Positions 6,073 to 51,820 of a stretch of DNA of 64,000 nt are shown here, piece after piece. The stretch is from positions 150,506 through 214,505 of the forward strand of contig JAGORR010000001.1 in the NCBI GenBank assembly GCA_018062765.1. The letters are read 5' to 3'. The notes under the pieces are model-generated. The model did no database searches and was not told the origin of the DNA. It saw nothing but the letters and a program-made list of their open reading frames with translations. The translations under genes and the position numbers were made by a program. The DNA is from Minisyncoccota bacterium (lineage in GTDB: Bacteria; Patescibacteriota; Minisyncoccia; Phycocordibacterales; Phycocordibacteraceae). Numbering within the stretch: position 1 is the stretch's first letter; each line of letters begins with the position of its first letter.

Positions 6073-6528
6073 ATGCAGCTCAACTCCTTCAAATCCAAAA
6101 CTAAGCGCGCACCAGTGCGTCGCGTAGGTCGCGGTGGCAAGCGCGGAAAGACCTCAGGCCACGGCGGCAAGGGGCAGACGGCGCGCGCAGGGCACAAAAT
6201 TCGCCCAGAGATGCGCGACAAGATAAAGAAGATCCCGAAGCTTCGCGGTCACGGCAAGAACCGCAGTCGCACCGTACGCACGACGCAGGTCACCTACGTG
6301 CCGGTTAACCTCGCGGTTCTCGAGCGTGCGTTTCAGTCTGGCGACACGGTGAACGCTGAGACCCTCATGAAGGCGGGTGTCGTTCGCGCAGTACGCGGCC
6401 GGCTTCCGCGCGTGAAGTTGCTTGCAACCGGCGAGCTTACCAAGGCGCTTACCGTCTCCATCCCCGCGGTCTCCGCATCCGCCAAGGCTGCGATAGAGAA
6501 GGCCGGCGGCTCGGTCCTCCATGATTAG
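6073..6528 (+). CDS. rplO: 50S ribosomal protein L15
   Basis: GRGGKRGKTSGHGGKGQ glycine-rich L15 signature. Confidence 0.95.
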   Translation: MQLNSFKSKTKRAPVRRVGRGGKRGKTSGHGGKGQTARAGHKIRPEMRDKIKKIPKLRGHGKNRSRTVRTTQVTYVPVNLAVLERAFQSGDTVNAETLMKAGVVRAVRGRLPRVKLLATGELTKALTVSIPAVSASAKAAIEKAGGSVLHD

Positions 6529-12395: not shown

Positions 12396-12425
12396 AGCTT
12401 TTAGCTGATAGCTCTTAGCTTTTAG
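12396..12425 (-). repeat. AGCTNNN heptad tandem array (4 units) ending 6 nt upstream of the rplT start codon
   Basis: minus strand reads CTAAAAGCTAAGAGCTATCAGCTAAAAGCTATTTTTT-ATG. Confidence 0.6.
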
Positions 12426-21860: not shown

Positions 21861-21865
21861 GTTTG

Positions 21866-21939
21866 TCCACCCGCTTGGACTCGAACCAAGGACCGCGGAG
21901 GTATAAGCTCCGTGCTCTAACCAACTGAGCTACGGGTGG
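21866..21939 (-). tRNA. tRNA with anticodon UAU (Ile2-type, AUA-decoding), C1-G72, A73
   Basis: minus-strand cloverleaf CCACCCG-UA-GCUC-AGUUGGUUA-GAGC-A-CGGAG-CUUAUAC-CUCCG-CGGUC-CUUGG-UUCGAGU-CCAAG-CGGGUGG-A. Confidence 0.7.
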
Positions 21940-41237: not shown

Positions 41238-41404
41238 GCCGTAGAAAATCGCGATCTGCGGTGTTGCCGCTACGTCTCAGAGTCTCACTGTATACCGTAT
41301 ACGGTTCGACTCTTCGCCTTGCGGCGCCCGTGAGCTCATCGGTTTTCTCCAGCCCTCGTCCTCGGGGCGGGTGCGATATACACCTCCCTGGCTTTCTTTC
41401 CTTT

Positions 41405-41434
41405 CTAAAAGCTATAAGCTAATAGCTAACAGCT
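41405..41434 (+). repeat. AGCTNNN heptad array (4 units) abutting the pilC start codon
   Basis: CTAAAAGCTATAAGCTAATAGCTAACAGCT-ATG. Confidence 0.6.
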
Positions 41435-42643
41435 ATGTTATTTTTCTACCGCGCTCTTGATCAGGACGGCCACGAACGGGAGGGAACCGTCGAGGCGCTC
41501 TCGATGGATGTCGCCGTTACGACGCTGCAGCGGCGTAATCTCATCGTCTCCTCAATAACGCCTGCGGAGACTAAGGGCGTCCTCCAGATGGAAGTGCCGT
41601 TCATCAATTCGGTTTCCAACAAGGATGTTGTCATCCTCTCGCGTCAGATTGCGACCTTGTTCGAGGCGCAGGTCTCTGCGCTCCGCATTTTCCGCCTTTT
41701 GGCGAGCGAGGTAGATAACGCGAAGCTTTCTGAGATACTCACCAAGGTCGCCGATGACCTTCAGGGAGGAAGCCCAATCTCCAAGGCGCTCTCGAAGCAT
41801 CCGAAGGTGTTCACTGCGTTCTACGTCAACATGGTGCGCGCCGGAGAGGAGGCAGGAAAGCTCTCCGAGACCTTCGGATACCTGGCTGACTACCTTGATC
41901 GTACGTACGAGGTGATGAGTAAGGCTCAGAACGCCCTTATCTATCCGGCGTTCGTCATATTCACATTCGTTGTCGTGATGGGTCTCATGCTCACGATGGT
42001 CATCCCGAACATCTCGAAGATCATCATCGAATCGGGCCAGCCTATCCCTATCTACACGCAGATAGTCATCGGCCTATCTGAATTCGTCGTCAATTTCGGC
42101 ATATTGATACTCATCGCTCTCTTGGTAGGCGCCTTCTTCGCATGGCGTTCGTCACAGACCGCGTCCGGCCGGTTCTTCTTCGATAACCTGAAATTGAACG
42201 TGCCGTACGTGGGAGAGCTTTATAAGAAGCTCTACCTATCACGTATTTCGGACAACTTCTCGACAATGCTTATCTCAGGCGTCGCAGTGGTCGAAGCGAT
42301 AGAGATTACGGGTGCTGTCGTCGGAAGCTCGGTGTACGAGGGAATCCTGAAGCGCGTCGCTGACGACGTGAAGGGCGGGCTCTCTATCTCGGAAGCGCTT
42401 GGCCGCCACAAGGAGGTACCGGGCATCATGGTCGCCATGATCAAGGTGGGTGAGGAGACGGGAGAGTTAGGTTCCATCCTCAATACGCTCGCGAAGTTCT
42501 ATCGACGCGAGGTCTCGAACGCGGTTGATACCCTGGTCGACCTTATCGAGCCGTTGATGATTGTTTTCTTGGGTCTTGGTGTTGGAGTCCTTCTTGCTGC
42601 GGTGCTTATCCCTATCTACAACCTCGCCGGTTCTATAGGCTAA
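41435..42643 (+). CDS. pilC: type IV pilus platform protein PilC (GspF family)
   Basis: two GspF repeats, polytopic; 402 aa. Confidence 0.9.
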   Translation: MLFFYRALDQDGHEREGTVEALSMDVAVTTLQRRNLIVSSITPAETKGVLQMEVPFINSVSNKDVVILSRQIATLFEAQVSALRIFRLLASEVDNAKLSEILTKVADDLQGGSPISKALSKHPKVFTAFYVNMVRAGEEAGKLSETFGYLADYLDRTYEVMSKAQNALIYPAFVIFTFVVVMGLMLTMVIPNISKIIIESGQPIPIYTQIVIGLSEFVVNFGILILIALLVGAFFAWRSSQTASGRFFFDNLKLNVPYVGELYKKLYLSRISDNFSTMLISGVAVVEAIEITGAVVGSSVYEGILKRVADDVKGGLSISEALGRHKEVPGIMVAMIKVGEETGELGSILNTLAKFYRREVSNAVDTLVDLIEPLMIVFLGLGVGVLLAAVLIPIYNLAGSIG

Positions 42644-42920
42644 AAGGATTCTAGACACGCACCTGCATTGTTACCGCGGCGACTCAGCATTTCACCGTAT
42701 GCCGATACGGCTCAATGCTTCGTCTTGCGGCGCCTCGCATCTACATGCCTATAACCCTTTTATCGTTGCAGCGACTGATTCTTTTATGCGCGCTCCGGAA
42801 AAATTCAAAGGTACGAATTCATCACTTGTCCACACGGGGGACAAGCGCGTGTCTAATCCGGCGTACAATGATAGGCAAGCGGAGATTATCCGTCCCATAC
42901 CAATTATCTAAACCTTTATC

Positions 42921-43436
42921 ATGATTCGCGCATCTCTCGGCCACGTCAAAGGACACCTTAAGGGGCACCTCAAAGGATTCACCCTCATCGAGCTCCTCGT
43001 CGTGATCGCTATTATCGGTATTCTCTCGTCAGTCGTGCTCGCATCTCTCTCAACTGCGCGCTCCAAGGGTCAGGATGCGAAGGTTCAGGAACAGATGCAG
43101 GCGATGCGCACAGCAGCTGAAATTTACTACAGCAGCAATGCAAACTCGTACGGCACGGCGGGTACGGCATGTTCGGGTGGCATATTCGGTGATCCTGGCT
43201 CTAACATGAATGCGCTCATCGACGAGACTGAGGCAGCTAACGGCACTCCAAGCATGGACTGTGCTAACAGCACCACCGCATGGGCAGTCGCATCAGAGCT
43301 TCCTTCTGGCGGATCGTGGTTCTGTGTCGACTCGACCGGTTGGGCTGGTTCAAAAGCTAAGGACGGTTCTGCAGTTACGGCACTTACTGGAGCTGCGGGT
43401 GCAAAGGCATCTGCAAACGCTACAGTCTGCCGCTAG
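42921..43436 (+). CDS. type IV pilin (prepilin with 19-aa leader MIRASLGHVKGHLKGHLKG|FTLIELLVV)
   Basis: class III signal G|FTLIE + hydrophobic helix; C-terminal Cys pair. Confidence 0.82.
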   Translation: MIRASLGHVKGHLKGHLKGFTLIELLVVIAIIGILSSVVLASLSTARSKGQDAKVQEQMQAMRTAAEIYYSSNANSYGTAGTACSGGIFGDPGSNMNALIDETEAANGTPSMDCANSTTAWAVASELPSGGSWFCVDSTGWAGSKAKDGSAVTALTGAAGAKASANATVCR

Positions 43437-43453
43437 CACTTACTCCGGAGTAG

Positions 43454-43492
43454 CAAACATCCCCAGCCAGAAGGCTGGGGATGTTTGCTTTT
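43454..43492 (+). terminator. 15-bp stem hairpin CAAACATCCCCAGCC-AGAA-GGCTGGGGATGTTTG + CTTTT
   Basis: classic intrinsic terminator after pilin 1. Confidence 0.75.
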
Positions 43493-43509
43493 AGGGGTAC
43501 ACTGGAAGC

Positions 43510-44073
43510 ATGGACAAAGCTGTTAGCTATCAGCTGTTAGCTGTTAGAAGGAAATTCCAAACTGAGCCATATGCATTCTCTAAGCTGTCAGCTAAAAGCT
43601 GTCAGCTAAAAGCTACTCCCGGGTTTACCTTGATCGAACTCCTCGTCGTCATTGCCATAATTGGCATACTTGCGACCGTGGTAGTCGTTTCTATGTCAGC
43701 ATCTAAGGATACGGGGCGGGACGCAGCAGTGAAGTCGAACCTCGGAAGCTTGCAGGTGCAGGCGTCGCTTTACTACAACATCGGTTCAACGTTTGGATCT
43801 GCCACGACAAGCTGTGTGCCTGCATCTGGAAGCGTGTTCAATGACACGACGACGACCGTGGATGACATCACGAAGGCTGCGATTGCGGATGCAACGGAGA
43901 ACGCGAAGGGCAATGTGATGGTCTGTCGCGCAGCGCCAAATGCGTGGGCGGCGGGGGCTCAGCTTTCAAGTGGAAACTACTGGTGCGTGGATTCGAGGGG
44001 TGCCGCGCGTGAGGTTGAAGCGTTTACCACGGCAGATCTGTCCGCTTCGACCCCGCTCTGCCCGTCGTCATAG
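43510..44073 (+). CDS. type IV pilin 2 with a long N-terminal extension before G|FTLIELLVV
   Basis: only in-frame ATG is 43510, giving a 38-aa pre-sequence; the extension is encoded by AGCTNNN heptad arrays; start uncertain. Confidence 0.75.
   Translation: MDKAVSYQLLAVRRKFQTEPYAFSKLSAKSCQLKATPGFTLIELLVVIAIIGILATVVVVSMSASKDTGRDAAVKSNLGSLQVQASLYYNIGSTFGSATTSCVPASGSVFNDTTTTVDDITKAAIADATENAKGNVMVCRAAPNAWAAGAQLSSGNYWCVDSRGAAREVEAFTTADLSASTPLCPSS
43518..43547 (+). repeat. AGCTNNN heptad array (AGCTGTTAGCTATCAGCTGTTAGCTGTTAG)
   Basis: 7-bp periodicity read directly. Confidence 0.6.
43583..43614 (+). repeat. AGCTNNN heptad array (AGCTGTCAGCTAAAAGCTGTCAGCTAAAAGCT)
   Basis: 7-bp periodicity read directly; immediately precedes the ACTCCCGGGTTTACC (T-P-G-F-T) cleavage site. 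Confidence 0.6.
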
Positions 44074-44076
44074 CCT

Positions 44077-44838
44077 GTGGAGGTCGTACTTCCGTTGTTT
44101 TTGTTCGGGCTCGGGGCAACCTTGGCGAGCTTTATGCTCGTCGTTGCCGAGCGCATGCATACGGGCGAATCCTGGCGCGCTGGCCGTTCACGCTGCAACT
44201 CGTGCGCGCACGAACTAGGGCCTCTCGACCTCATACCCGTACTTTCGTGGCTTCTCTCGGGAGGGAAGTGCCGCAGGTGCGGCTCACGCGTACCGGCTGC
44301 CTATCTGGTCGCTGAAGCTCTTCTTGGCTCGTTATTCGTGGTCGCGTACCTGGTAACCGGCCTCTCTATAGCCCTTCCTGTGCTTCTTGCGTGTCTCGCG
44401 CTCCTCCTTGCGCTGGTCGCATATGACCTGCGCCACATGATGCTACCGAGCGGGCTGTCCTGGCCCCTCATTCTCCTGTCACTTCTTTACGCGTACCTCG
44501 TTGCTCCGACGTCCTACGAGCTCGGTGTCGTTCTCCTCACCTCAGGGCTCGTCGCTGCGTTTTTCTTCGCATTCCACGTCGCTTCAGGCGGGCGCGCGAT
44601 GGGTCTCGGTGACGCGCCACTCGGAGCCGCGCTTGCGCTGATTGCGGGCCCCTTGGCATTCTCTGGTGTCATCTACTCCTTTTGGATAGGCGGAGTTATC
44701 GGCATCTTCGTGTTGTTAGCCCGCGCTCCCGGGACTAGAATAGGTATTGAGGTGCCGTTCGCGCCATTTTTGGCCGCTGGCTCCCTTCTCGCTCTCTTCA
44801 CTTCATGGGACATCCTTTACATAATCGGCATAAGCTAG
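44077..44838 (+). CDS. pilD: prepilin peptidase PilD (A24 family)
   Basis: C..C...C..C zinc motif (RCNSCAHEL...GKCRRCGS), catalytic-Asp region GLGDAPLG; GTG start at 44077. Confidence 0.85.
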   Translation: MEVVLPLFLFGLGATLASFMLVVAERMHTGESWRAGRSRCNSCAHELGPLDLIPVLSWLLSGGKCRRCGSRVPAAYLVAEALLGSLFVVAYLVTGLSIALPVLLACLALLLALVAYDLRHMMLPSGLSWPLILLSLLYAYLVAPTSYELGVVLLTSGLVAAFFFAFHVASGGRAMGLGDAPLGAALALIAGPLAFSGVIYSFWIGGVIGIFVLLARAPGTRIGIEVPFAPFLAAGSLLALFTSWDILYIIGIS

Positions 44839-45578
44839 CTACGAGCTATCAGCTACGAGCTATCAGCTTGGGATCTGAATCAGGCTTTTTCCGCAAGCCA
44901 AGAGCTAAAAGCCAACAGCTAAAGGCCGTACCCGGCTTCACCTTAATCGAGATGCTCGTTGTGCTTGCGATTATTGTCATCGTCACTGGCATCGCGATAG
45001 GTGGACATGCGAGTTTCGGACGAACGCTTTCTCTCAATAACGCTGCGTACAGCGTGGCCCTGACTCTCCGCGAGGCACAAACCTATGGCTTTACGAGCCG
45101 CGGCTATACGGGCATACAGAACACGGGGTACGGAGTTTCATTCTCGTCTGCGACGGGCTTCTCGCTGTTTGCGGATACGTATCCTGCAGTCGCAGCCTCA
45201 GCTACGCCGGACCAGCCTCCCGGTAACGGGCGCTATGACGCGGGTGTCGCGCCCTCAGGCTGCCCGGGCGCCGAGTGCGTCACGAATTACACCTTGAATA
45301 ACGGGTACTCCGTCGCAAAGTTCTGCGTGAAGCCGGAATCCGCGACGAGCGATTGGATTTGCAATACGACAAGCACGCTCACCAAGATGGATATCGTCTT
45401 CAAGCGGCCCGAATCAGATGCGCGTATTTCAGGAAGGCTCGGTTCCAGTGATAGCGGTTGGTCGGACGAGTACGTGCGCGCGTGCGTCTCGGTCGCGGGA
45501 AGCTCAGGCGACACGCGTACCGTCTCAATTTCTGAGGCAGGGCAGATCGCCGTATCAAATGGCGTATGTGGATCATGA
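44805..45578 (+). CDS. type IV pilin 3 with a long N-terminal extension before G|FTLIEMLVV
   Basis: in-frame ATG at 44805 lies inside the pilD 3' end; the pre-sequence ...SYQLRAIS...RAKSQQLKAVPG parallels pilin 2; start uncertain. Confidence 0.68.
   Translation: MGHPLHNRHKLATSYQLRAISLGSESGFFRKPRAKSQQLKAVPGFTLIEMLVVLAIIVIVTGIAIGGHASFGRTLSLNNAAYSVALTLREAQTYGFTSRGYTGIQNTGYGVSFSSATGFSLFADTYPAVAASATPDQPPGNGRYDAGVAPSGCPGAECVTNYTLNNGYSVAKFCVKPESATSDWICNTTSTLTKMDIVFKRPESDARISGRLGSSDSGWSDEYVRACVSVAGSSGDTRTVSISEAGQIAVSNGVCGS
44833..44868 (+). repeat. AGCTNNN heptad array (AGCTAGCTACGAGCTATCAGCTACGAGCTATCAGCT)
   Basis: 7-bp periodicity read directly; begins at the pilD stop codon. Confidence 0.6.
44903..44926 (+). 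repeat. degenerate AGCTNNN array (AGCTAAAAGCCAACAGCTAAAGGCC)
   Basis: read directly; encodes the AKSQQLKA leader segment. Confidence 0.5.
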
Positions 45579-51199: not shown

Positions 51200-51820
51200 A
51201 TGGACGGGAACGCGCCCATCGCGACTACTACGAACGTTGTTTCTACTCCGTATACCCTTAATATCGAGGGTATCTTCGGTGCGTTCTATCGGTTCCTTGT
51301 TGATCTTGCTGGATTATCGTCAGGGACGGATTGGATATCTCTCGTCACCTCGATATGGATTGTCGTGACGGTGCTCGCGTATCTCTTTTCTGCTGGCGTC
51401 ATCGCGCTCCTGGTGTACCTGTCCGTGCGTCAGCATCAGATAGAGCTTGAGGAGGCGGACAAGTACGATTTTCTCTCGAAGGAGGAAGCGGAGGACACTA
51501 CCGAGCACTCACGATGGGGTCACGTGCAGTCACTTATCGAAAGCGGTTCACCAAGCGAATGGCGACAAGCGATTATCGAGGCAGATATCATGCTCGACGA
51601 TGTGCTTGCGTCCTATGGGTACCCCGGAAATTCCGTGGGCGAGAAACTGAAGGCAGGGGACCCCTCGCGCTTCCGCACCCTGCAGGACGCATGGGATGCT
51701 CATAAGGTGCGCAACGACATTGCGCACCAGGGTTCGGGTTACCAGCTTACAGAGCAGATGGCGCACCGCACTATCGCAAAATATCGCAACGTATTTCTGG
51801 AGTTCGGAGTCATTTCCTGA
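51200..51820 (+). CDS. membrane-anchored protein with C-terminal HEPN-like domain (R-x4-H motif RNDIAHQ)
   Basis: two N-terminal TM segments; C-terminal ...AWDAHKVRNDIAHQGSGYQLTEQMAHRTIAKYRNVF. Confidence 0.45.
   Translation: MDGNAPIATTTNVVSTPYTLNIEGIFGAFYRFLVDLAGLSSGTDWISLVTSIWIVVTVLAYLFSAGVIALLVYLSVRQHQIELEEADKYDFLSKEEAEDTTEHSRWGHVQSLIESGSPSEWRQAIIEADIMLDDVLASYGYPGNSVGEKLKAGDPSRFRTLQDAWDAHKVRNDIAHQGSGYQLTEQMAHRTIAKYRNVFLEFGVIS

Follow-up and report, generated by a model that had tools for sequence, protein, structure and literature searches.

Why should the tetranucleotide AGCT recur every seven nucleotides (nt) just where genes begin? The question is raised by a 64-kb window (the whole stretch of DNA analysed, 64,000 nt, positions 150,506 to 214,505 of contig JAGORR010000001.1, assembly GCA_018062765.1) from a Minisyncoccota bacterium. 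Six arrays of AGCT-N3 heptads, each of 4-5 units, are found in this window at four gene starts, those of pilC, pilin 2, pilin 3 and rplT. Two of the loci, pilC and rplT, are intergenic and adjoin start codons, while the other two lie inside open reading frames (ORFs) but within the part encoding the cleaved leader peptide. A first-pass annotation, made from the sequence letters, had placed the arrays at gene 5′ ends, with rplT as the only site outside the pilus genes, and both observations hold across the 64 kb. Type IV pili are thought to serve host attachment and DNA uptake in bacteria of the candidate phyla radiation (CPR), to which the host belongs.

Heptad arrays in the 64-kb window

At pilC, four exact units occupy 41410-41434 (+ strand, as do all arrays except that of rplT), the last of them adjoining the ATG at 41435, and a degenerate extra unit starts at 41403; the stretch 41403-41434 reads CTAAAAG CTATAAG CTAATAG CTAACAG CT, that is (AGCTANN)x4, and contains no Shine-Dalgarno (SD) motif. 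Pilin 2 carries array A (43518-43542, four exact units, extended to 43549 with a partial AG: AGCTGTT AGCTATC AGCTGTT AGCTGTT AG) in inverted orientation and array B (43583-43614, five exact units, (AGCTGTC AGCTAAA)x2.4) in sense orientation, the latter being an exact 14-nt doublet. In pilin 3, array A (44837-44868, five exact units, with an extra AGCT at 44833) is inverted and again an exact 14-nt doublet, (AGCTACG AGCTATC)x2.3, and array B (44896-44930, AGCCAAG AGCTAAA AGCCAAC AGCTAAA GGCCGTA) is in sense orientation and degenerate. On the minus strand, the four-unit array of rplT (12396-12420) lies between the rpmI stop codon and the rplT ATG; its sense strand reads AGCTAAG AGCTATC AGCTAAA AGCT, then ATTTTTT, then the ATG (12388-12386), with the rpmI stop codon (12417-12415) falling within the first unit. 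The initial count of 4-5 exact AGCT copies per array is correct for four of the five arrays it had been given for and fails for the fifth, pilin 3 array B, which has only two.

The arrays are non-random and real, as the first-pass annotation had assumed. The three-unit AGCT pattern matches 12 times in the window, compared to 0.00 in 100 dinucleotide-preserving shuffles, and a four-unit pattern allowing up to two mismatches also matches 12 times, against 0.02 expected. Among all pairs of AGCT in the window, distances of 7, 14 and 21 nt tower over all others. A period-7 scan for any repeated trinucleotide returned the AGCT arrays and one weak unrelated chain (CGA x4 at 51556-51579), and Tandem Repeats Finder, run with no prior, recovered all six arrays with period 7 or, in four of them, as doublets of period 14. 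Two of these doublets, 43582-43614 and 44837-44868, are exact, and pilin 2 array B gives 100% matches. The AGCT core shows 6 mismatches in 112 positions over all arrays, whereas the spacers take 10 different values among 23, their first position always being a purine (A or G). All arrays are identical in five independent assemblies (the NCBI metagenome-assembled genome (MAG) GCA_017991435.1, three Logan runs and one ENA assembly) and are therefore not assembly artefacts.

Several familiar kinds of element were considered and rejected. Clustered regularly interspaced short palindromic repeats (CRISPR) are excluded by the 7-nt unit and the array length of 25-35 nt, compared to repeats of ~24-48 nt with unique spacers of similar length, and conventional promoters by a consensus promoter scan that finds none inside the arrays, in agreement with the initial arguments against both. 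Iterons and helical phasing are excluded by the wrong unit size. A miniature inverted-repeat transposable element (MITE) or repetitive extragenic palindrome (REP) model is rejected given that no target-site duplication is found at the insert borders and that the inserts of pilin 2 and pilin 3 have unrelated centres. An Rfam scan of the window returned only tmRNA and five tRNAs, and the arrays reach no family's gathering score. The window also holds a tRNA-Ile with anticodon TAT (UAU), uncommon in bacteria, at 21865-21939 on the minus strand.

The gene identities first proposed for pilC and the pilins were borne out by Pfam, which recognises in the window pilB, a CheY-like receiver protein, pilT, pilC, five N_methyl prepilins and a prepilin peptidase. 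The pilC gene (41435-42643, +) belongs to the T2SSF family (PF00482, E 2.9e-55), and pilD (44077-44838, +) encodes an A24 prepilin peptidase (PF06750 and PF01478) whose stop codon lies in AGCTAGCT, which opens pilin 3 array A.

Leader inserts and solo arrays

The host, a Paceibacterota MAG, appears to be SD-poor and partly leaderless. A lenient SD-like tetranucleotide is found upstream of 15 of the 72 long ORFs in the window, and TAnnnT hexamers peak 6-7 nt before start codons (9 genes there, compared to ~0.9 per position elsewhere), a combination characteristic of leaderless mRNAs, which suggests that these are widespread in this genome. Examples are the hexamer at 43498-43503 and those preceding the ORFs that start at 6073, 25525, 30752, 36357, 37995 and 51200. 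The one at 43498-43503 (+) is the -10-like TACACT, located 6 nt before the pilin 2 ATG and downstream of a terminator-like hairpin of pilin 1 (43461-43480), which suggests that the pilin 2 mRNA is leaderless; the same arrangement recurs in the sister locus L006 (TAGACT, 6 nt, ATG) and likewise in the related loci L408 and L410. The idea of a leaderless or initiation element, raised early on, is in keeping with this SD-poor, TAnnnT-peaked window, which makes a role in initiation plausible where the arrays are solo, at pilC and rplT.

Both array pairs lie within ORFs, between the start codon and the G/FTLIE cleavage motif. The extended leader of pilin 2 (43510-43623, +), delimited by the ORF and the N_methyl motif, spans 38 codons, starting with the ATG and ending with the Gly that precedes F-T-L-I-E, and the ATG at 43510 is the sole in-frame ATG, GTG or TTG upstream of that motif. 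In pilin 3 the extended leader (44805-44936, +) comprises 44 codons from the ATG at 44805, or 23 from an in-frame TTG at 44866 that sits directly after array A. Arrays A and B are separated by 33 nt in pilin 2 and 27 nt in pilin 3 and are mutually inverted, the distal one being inverted and the proximal one in sense orientation. The 3′ ends of the two B arrays are homologous between the genes (..AAAGCTACTCCCGG / ..AAAGGCCGTACCCGG), and neither B array is succeeded by any start codon. A TTCACT-17-CATAAT promoter-like stretch, a consensus match only, ends at 44825, 7 nt before pilin 3 array A.

Each of three heptad leader inserts, the two in the window and one in L006, keeps a single open frame, which is that of the pilin; the leader inserts are therefore read through, and the extended leader would then be removed by PilD. 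In the predicted RNA fold of 43515-43617 (-32.2 kcal/mol, z -2.75, 0/200 shuffles as good), arrays A and B of pilin 2 pair in a long imperfect hairpin. The leader of pilin 1 (42936-42975) contains a 12-nt tandem repeat encoding GHVK-GHLK-GHLK right before G/FTLIE; this repeat is kept in L006 and in the related locus L409, and it is therefore regarded as a protein-level feature unrelated to the AGCT heptads.

The arrays at pilC and rplT stand alone. The gap between array and ATG is 0 nt at pilC and 7 nt at rplT, neither with an SD motif, and the spacers, read on the sense strand of the downstream gene, are purine-first and A-rich. Neither region is predicted to fold beyond its shuffles (z -0.65 for pilC and -0.22 for rplT). 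Comparison of 44 pilC upstream regions revealed that many relatives have TGcGATAAT 8-9 nt before the pilC ATG, or the pilC ATG directly after the pilT stop codon. In the window, an extended -10 element, TGCGATATA (41372-41380, +), read by alignment with L409, L006 and L031, lies 54 nt upstream of the pilC ATG and is probably the leftover of the extended -10 of a leaderless pilC promoter.

An ~80-nt motif (..GTTGCCGC..CACCGTAT.CCGATACGG..CTTGCGGCGCC..) was observed in both intergenic regions flanking pilC (41255-41345 and 42660-42750), as well as in L006 (7225-7315) and L409 (140-230). It has no Rfam match, and its consensus fold combines an inner hairpin (CCGUAU/AUACGG) with an outer stem, 8 of the 18 predicted pairs being changed on both sides; it is possibly a structured RNA or a terminator-like element.

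Age of the arrays and heptads in other genomes

The arrays were compared with 47 relatives, comprising 44 related pilC loci and three fetched via the closest PilC homologues; the related loci all come from Paceibacterota, Parcubacteria or Kaiserbacteria-like MAGs. AGCT arrays are present in none of the 47, including L006, whose PilC is 96% identical, a result which, by the refuting condition set in the first-pass annotation, speaks against a conserved regulatory site. A PilC homologue search found none between 96% and 100% identity, and the 90%-identity PilC cluster consists of a single member. The leaders of L006 are short, namely MKRG in pilin 2 and 15 aa (MGHPFHHRHRLRERG) from the homologous ATG in pilin 3, so the 38 and 44 codons of the window's leaders point to in-frame inserts of ~90-100 nt carrying the arrays.

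The rplT array could be followed through contigs encoding an identical L20 protein. It is present in strains 100% and 95% identical in DNA, whereas at 96% and 91% identity the site reads just AAAAGCTAAGacattttcgtATG, holding a single AGCT and a spacer of 11 nt. The rplT array is therefore a recent gain of ~15 nt, grown from a lone AGCT at the rpmI stop codon. The units gained there (AGCTATC and AGCTAAA) match units of the pilin arrays, not the local AGCTAAG. These comparisons indicate that the AGCT arrays are young, lineage-specific insertions or expansions.

Relatives carry other short repeats at the same sites, and the unit cores found per genome are AGCT-R-N-N at four loci in the window, CAGG/CCTG in L006 and TAG/CTA in L038. 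Directly upstream of pilC, L006 has (GTAACCT)x3 adjoining the ATG, with (CAGGNNN)x4 ~40 nt further upstream (fold z -3.2); L028 has (CTANNNN)x5 ending in CTATG, L409 has GGCGATA GGCGATA AGCTATA GATAC ATG and L031 has GCTATAAGCTATAGGTAC directly before the ATG. The pilC site of L038 carries (CTAGNGC)x3.4, and in the same locus (TAGNNNN)x5 and (NNNNCTA)x5 are inverted around a gene inserted between pilT and pilC. L044 has two complementary 14-mer arrays between the response-regulator gene and pilT (z -7.88).

Prepilin leaders are likewise occupied in relatives. The pilin 5 leader of L006 contains an in-frame (CAGGNNN)4.5-loop-(CCTGNNN)4.3 insert (z -3.39) where the window has MKG, and five further in-frame leader inserts were found in related Parcubacteria, two in L011 (8640-8756 and 9935-10050), one in L041 (9711-9831) and two in L038 (9778-9901 and 10380-10503). 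Compared to shuffles, the folds reach z -4.36 for L011 at 10026, z -6.83 for L038 at 9877 and z -1.63 for the other L011 insert; the L041 and second L038 inserts were folded without shuffles. Both L011 inserts resemble MITEs: their terminal inverted repeat is CCCCGTTAGAGAAA, and the target-site duplication, GGGTTTAC, falls exactly on the Gly-Phe-Thr codons. As read from these loci, the cleaved prepilin leader is a recurrent landing site for inserts, which are translated through.

The gene inserted in L038 (5564-5998) encodes a PF05635 "23S rRNA-intervening sequence protein" (E 2.3e-36), a family also listed as the four-helix-bundle protein TIGR02436 and related to Avd. In 16 out of 16 cases (12 plasmid loci, L038 and three viral loci) the PF05635 gene lies between inverted period-7 or period-8 arrays, one side being lost in one of them, which ties heptanucleotide repeats to intervening-sequence and Avd-like proteins. 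The viral loci are L225, L247 and L218; the first two viral cases were met by chance, their contigs having been fetched as a control by a scan for ACGT heptads, and in two viral contigs the gene stands between inverted (ACGTTCA)n and (ACGTTGA)n. Searching viral contigs for further PF05635 genes, with an alignment of two sequences, yielded no locus beyond the first two. PF05635 homologues were found in 34 plasmid records, mostly cyanobacterial, of which 12 were examined (L392-L403, from Nostoc, Calothrix, Pseudanabaena, Stanieria, Anabaena, Picosynechococcus, Geminocystis, Leptolyngbya, Gemmatirosa, Azospirillum and Riemerella). Eleven of these 12 have an inverted array pair on both sides, and in the twelfth the upstream side has been lost to an insertion sequence (IS) element. 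The 16 cases cover Cyanobacteriota, Bacteroidota, Gemmatimonadota, Pseudomonadota, Patescibacteria and phage contigs, and in Azospirillum the cassette proves to be a true intervening sequence within 23S rRNA.

The cassettes sit between neighbouring operon genes (nrdB/nrdA, cas6/cas4 in two genera, cas10/cmr3 and pilT/pilC) and in 23S rRNA, and in several the stop codon of the PF05635 ORF falls in the downstream array. Within 20-40 kb around three cassettes, similar arrays occur only every few kb, so the flanking pairs are specific to the gene. The Calothrix cassette (PCC 7716, protein BDA76508.1) is bordered by (TTAGCTG) and (AGCTAAA), with AGCTGTT/AGCTAAA units as in the window; Pseudanabaena has (AAAAGCT)x15.6 directly before the PF05635 ATG, and the cassette of Anabaena sp. 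90 belongs to the CAGG family, as in L006. On the plasmid of Calothrix sp. PCC 7716, an intergenic (TAGCTAA)x3.7 (L411, 13018-13043) was observed 3.8 kb from the PF05635 cassette, so the AGCT family is dispersed in that genome too. Our literature search found no general link between PF05635 and heptamer arrays, only the single case of Coxiella; its coverage is incomplete and novelty is not proven. The pairing of PF05635 genes with inverted arrays across phyla may be new, as may in-frame heptad arrays in CPR prepilin leaders.

AGCT heptad arrays are common in phage contigs, with at least 120 loci. Among the matches listed, some contigs hold many arrays, the arrays are often placed a few to 25 nt before an SD motif and ATG, in 65 of 96 cases the closest gene downstream has the A-rich strand as its sense strand (p = 7e-4), and none of the 120 viral AGCT loci has a PF05635 gene, so that most arrays appear to stand outside such cassettes.

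Several viral layouts were observed. In L190 (3952-10512, GC 0.60), AGCT arrays occur between consecutive genes on the same strand, and five inverted pairs each enclose a GC-rich palindrome, e.g. GCGCGCCttGGCGCGC, in the same array-spacer-array plan as pilin 2. In eight contigs of GC 0.35-0.41 (L087, L093, L096, L111, L133, L172, L182 and L194), (AAGCTTN)n is fused to a TTGACA -35 box, with a TAGGAT or TATAAT -10 box ~17 nt later, and the repeat unit resembles the -35 hexamer; L225 and L247 share this layout with (ACGTTGA)n. A bacterial array, in Deinococcus murrayi (L068, 4660-4734), consists of (GCAGCCG)x5 followed by AGCTGAG AGCTGAC AGCTGAC, lies at the 3′ end of a mechanosensitive-channel-like ORF at a convergent gene junction, and was judged unrelated to pili.

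Candidate roles and known systems

The most likely reading, though a tentative one, is that the arrays act in cis on the transcript, via 5′-proximal structure and RNase III on the one hand and SD-less initiation on the other. Since the array positions are predicted to be transcribed, we infer an action in cis on RNA, not that of a conserved DNA operator. Paired arrays would form double-stranded RNA close to the 5′ end, most clearly in pilin 2, and cutting of this RNA by RNase III may set the stability or translatability of the mRNA. Solo arrays could provide an unstructured, A-rich spacer bearing stop codons in place of the missing ribosome-binding site, on which ribosomes may initiate or re-initiate without SD, as proposed for the TAACTGA repeats discussed below. 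In a leaderless gene, the cleaved leader peptide would be the sole place for such a module. Copying or slippage of heptad units would bring the arrays in and lengthen them, and they would survive only at sites that tolerate an insertion; any host benefit is secondary and unproven.

A number of observations weigh against a cis action on RNA. The array pair of pilin 3 folds no better than shuffles (z -0.03), so that a common RNA hairpin for all arrays had to be rejected, only pilin 2 beating its shuffles; the shared denominator is therefore AGCT at 7-nt spacing and not the hairpin, and this spacing fits a sequence-specific DNA or RNA binder equally well. An RNase III cut in the pilin leaders would separate the sole start codon from the pilin body and could only repress. 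The sister lineages live without arrays, so these can have no essential role. The 64-kb window contains no RNase III signature, and neither tblastn nor a profile built from 12 PF05635 proteins revealed a PF05635 gene in it. Scans of viral contigs returned at least 120 AGCT loci at period 7, at least 120 at period 8 and 65 ACGT loci at period 7, numbers that permit no ranking. Finally, the transcription start and processing sites invoked are themselves inferred from sequence.

Two rival explanations come next in weight. The arrays may be passive selfish or mutational repeats, spread by slippage, template switching or other copying and tolerated with no effect on expression, the AGCT core reflecting a need of the copying mechanism and not a host function. 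This is doubtful, yet it deserves serious weight: the gain is very recent and patchy among close relatives, sister species carry other cores at the same sites, unrelated hairpin or MITE-like inserts also enter prepilin leaders of relatives, the exact 14-nt doublets indicate recent duplication, the in-frame state can be explained by purifying selection on the pilins, and heptanucleotides are reported to be the commonest long simple sequence repeats, for which slippage has been proposed (introduction of PMC4679880). Local slippage alone, however, leaves unexplained why AGCT-R is common to six arrays at four loci with differing spacers, and the AGCTATC and AGCTAAA added at rplT are pilin-array units instead of copies of the local AGCTAAG; the tight placement at start codons and, among the phage matches listed, the orientation bias toward downstream genes are likewise not expected of passive repeats. 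DNA operator arrays, in which each heptad would bind a dimer of a small cooperative repressor (ribbon-helix-helix or PF05635 four-helix bundle), are unlikely. Such a model accommodates the palindromic 4-bp core, the free 3-bp spacers and the 4-5 contiguous units in direct and inverted order, it has a precedent in omega, which binds heptads in either orientation (PMC9499535, PMC2441792), and it could place an operator in the leader peptide, given that the downstream operator of a leaderless gene must lie in coding sequence. The (AAGCTTN)n fused directly to the TTGACA -35 box in low-GC phage contigs and the PF05635 genes between such arrays in all examined cases also speak for it. Yet no candidate regulator was identified in the annotation of the pilus cluster, where the search was made; one array lies within the infC-rpmI-rplT operon, where no promoter is expected; the core changes between sisters whose PilC is 96% identical, so that the regulator would have had to co-evolve very rapidly or be replaced; and the phage orientation bias, among the matches listed, is not expected of a palindromic operator.

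Two further explanations carry much less weight. It is very unlikely that the pilC array arose by 7-bp duplication of a -10 element (GCTATAA), giving weak -10s or sigma pause sites. Relatives do have TGcGATAAT, 8 nt and ATG, with heptads of -10-like sequence at the homologous spot in L031 and L409, and phage arrays resemble repeats of the neighbouring -35 box; but TATAAG, TAATAG and TAACAG lack the final T that is conserved in the window's -10-like elements, the consensus promoter scan is empty within the arrays, and neither the in-ORF pilin arrays downstream of the ATG nor the rpmI-rplT array would be explained. A contingency locus, in which gain or loss of a 7- or 14-nt unit frameshifts pilin 2 and pilin 3 on and off and the unit number tunes pilC, is highly improbable, and the pilin switching or phase variation considered at the outset falls with it, although no search for silent pilin copies was made. 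In its favour, 7 nt is no multiple of 3, the genes encode surface filaments, the 14-nt doublets are exact, and heptamer copy number varies in the Coxiella intervening sequence (PMC4990558) and in hmw (PMC12721329). Against this, unit number is the same in all five assemblies, more distant strains differ at rplT by presence or absence of the array and not by unit count, there are only 4-5 imperfect units or 2.3-2.4 doublets, whereas known phase-variable tracts are much longer, and the housekeeping gene rplT shares the arrays. Scanning metagenomes with the pilin 2 flanks set 86-114 nt apart returned no match, not even the locus itself, and therefore says nothing about length.

Beyond the cis action on RNA and its rivals stands a broader reading, which we consider rather unlikely, that heptad arrays and PF05635 genes form one broad kind of mobile cassette, an "intervening sequence outside rRNA". 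Such cassettes would insert into transcribed DNA between genes or at their start, including helix 45 of 23S rRNA and prepilin leaders; the inverted arrays would be recognition sites for the Avd-like PF05635 protein, RNase III or both; and the arrays of the window would be ORF-less or solo derivatives, co-opted as 5′ control modules in leaderless pilin leaders.

Whichever reading applies, the locus offers a small and tractable case for heptanucleotide repeats, in a minimal genome with almost no 5′ untranslated regions (UTRs). With repeats placed exactly at start codons and in prepilin leaders, transcription, RNA folding and translation become separable experimentally, and the frequent hairpin inserts in prepilin leaders may represent a lineage-specific route to the tuning of pilin expression in CPR bacteria.

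By their sequence features the AGCT arrays belong to the dispersed heptanucleotide repeats, which comprise short tandemly repeated repetitive (STRR) sequences, long simple sequence repeats and the TAACTGA type, a membership that explains the kind of repeat, not the mechanism. The STRR class was reportedly defined by Mazel et al. in 1990 in cyanobacteria. Like this class and the long simple sequence repeats, the arrays have a 7-nt unit in few to tens of copies, with many loci sharing one unit; its head-to-tail arrangement and the recurrence of the same unit at unlinked loci, differing between genomes, are found here, and AGCT-type units (TTAGCTG, AGCTAAA and AAAAGCT) occur in Calothrix and Pseudanabaena plasmids. 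Unlike STRR sequences, the present arrays reside in a small-genome CPR host, have a 4-5-nt core with free spacers and lie in-frame inside ORFs at two loci. According to work cited in the introduction of PMC4679880, no long simple repeats of prokaryotes are more abundant than heptanucleotides, and polymerase slippage has been proposed as their cause. In Xanthomonas and Nostoc, GGGNATC repeats occur preferentially as four units, no more than 50 bp from the ends of ORFs, and most are transcribed (PMC4692102).

TAACTGA repeats of marine Beggiatoaceae (MacGregor 2015) are found in 2-6 copies a few nt upstream of SD-less start codons, in genomes with few SD sites, overlap upstream stop codons, occur in ribosomal-protein operons and have been proposed to act in translational regulation; rare in-ORF copies lie at protein termini, and there are 169 sets per genome (PMC4679880). 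The forward arrays of pilC and rplT share the position a few nt from an SD-less start. They contain stop codons in two frames each and pilin 3 array A in none, every array leaving at least one frame open, unlike the closure of all three frames sought for TAACTGA-like repeats. Further differences are the unit itself, the perfect repetition of TAACTGA, the inverted pairs and leader inserts, which are not described there, and the scale of 169 sets per genome there compared to 64 kb scanned here.

In the Coxiella intervening sequence, 2-3 GACAGAT heptamers with strain-variable copy number precede the S23p ATG, and RNase III cleaves at the first heptamer (PMC4990558). The inserts of pilin 2 and pilin 3 share the array-spacer-array plan of such PF05635 cassettes, but the elements of the window either lack an ORF, their spacers measuring just 27-33 nt, or consist of a solo array, and they sit in mRNA, not rRNA, where excision by RNase III would destroy the pilin message and not be harmless. 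In H. influenzae hmw1A/hmw2A, one arm of a long 5′-UTR hairpin consists of (ATCTTTC)n; processing of this hairpin by RNase III controls adhesin expression, with 11 repeats given in a section heading as the reported minimum for phase variation (PMC12721329). Here too a heptamer array lies in the 5′ region of a surface-filament gene and is predicted to be a hairpin arm; the hmw array, in contrast, has at least 11 units, is perfect, phase-variable and located in the 5′ UTR, and pairs with a G-rich region.

The opa genes of Neisseria carry CTCTT repeats in the signal-peptide coding region that are long, perfect and highly variable in length. The pilin arrays resemble these in being short tandem repeats, with a unit not a multiple of 3, in the cleaved leader of a surface protein, and differ in showing no length variation among the five assemblies and in occurring outside surface-protein genes as well. 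For DNA-binding counterparts, MetJ recognises tandem 8-bp met-boxes, one dimer each. The omega protein of pSM19035 binds contiguous 7-bp heptads in either orientation, again with one dimer per unit (PMC9499535, PMC2441792). The AGCT arrays share with these operators their contiguous short units in direct or inverted order, and differ from them in extending beyond promoters.

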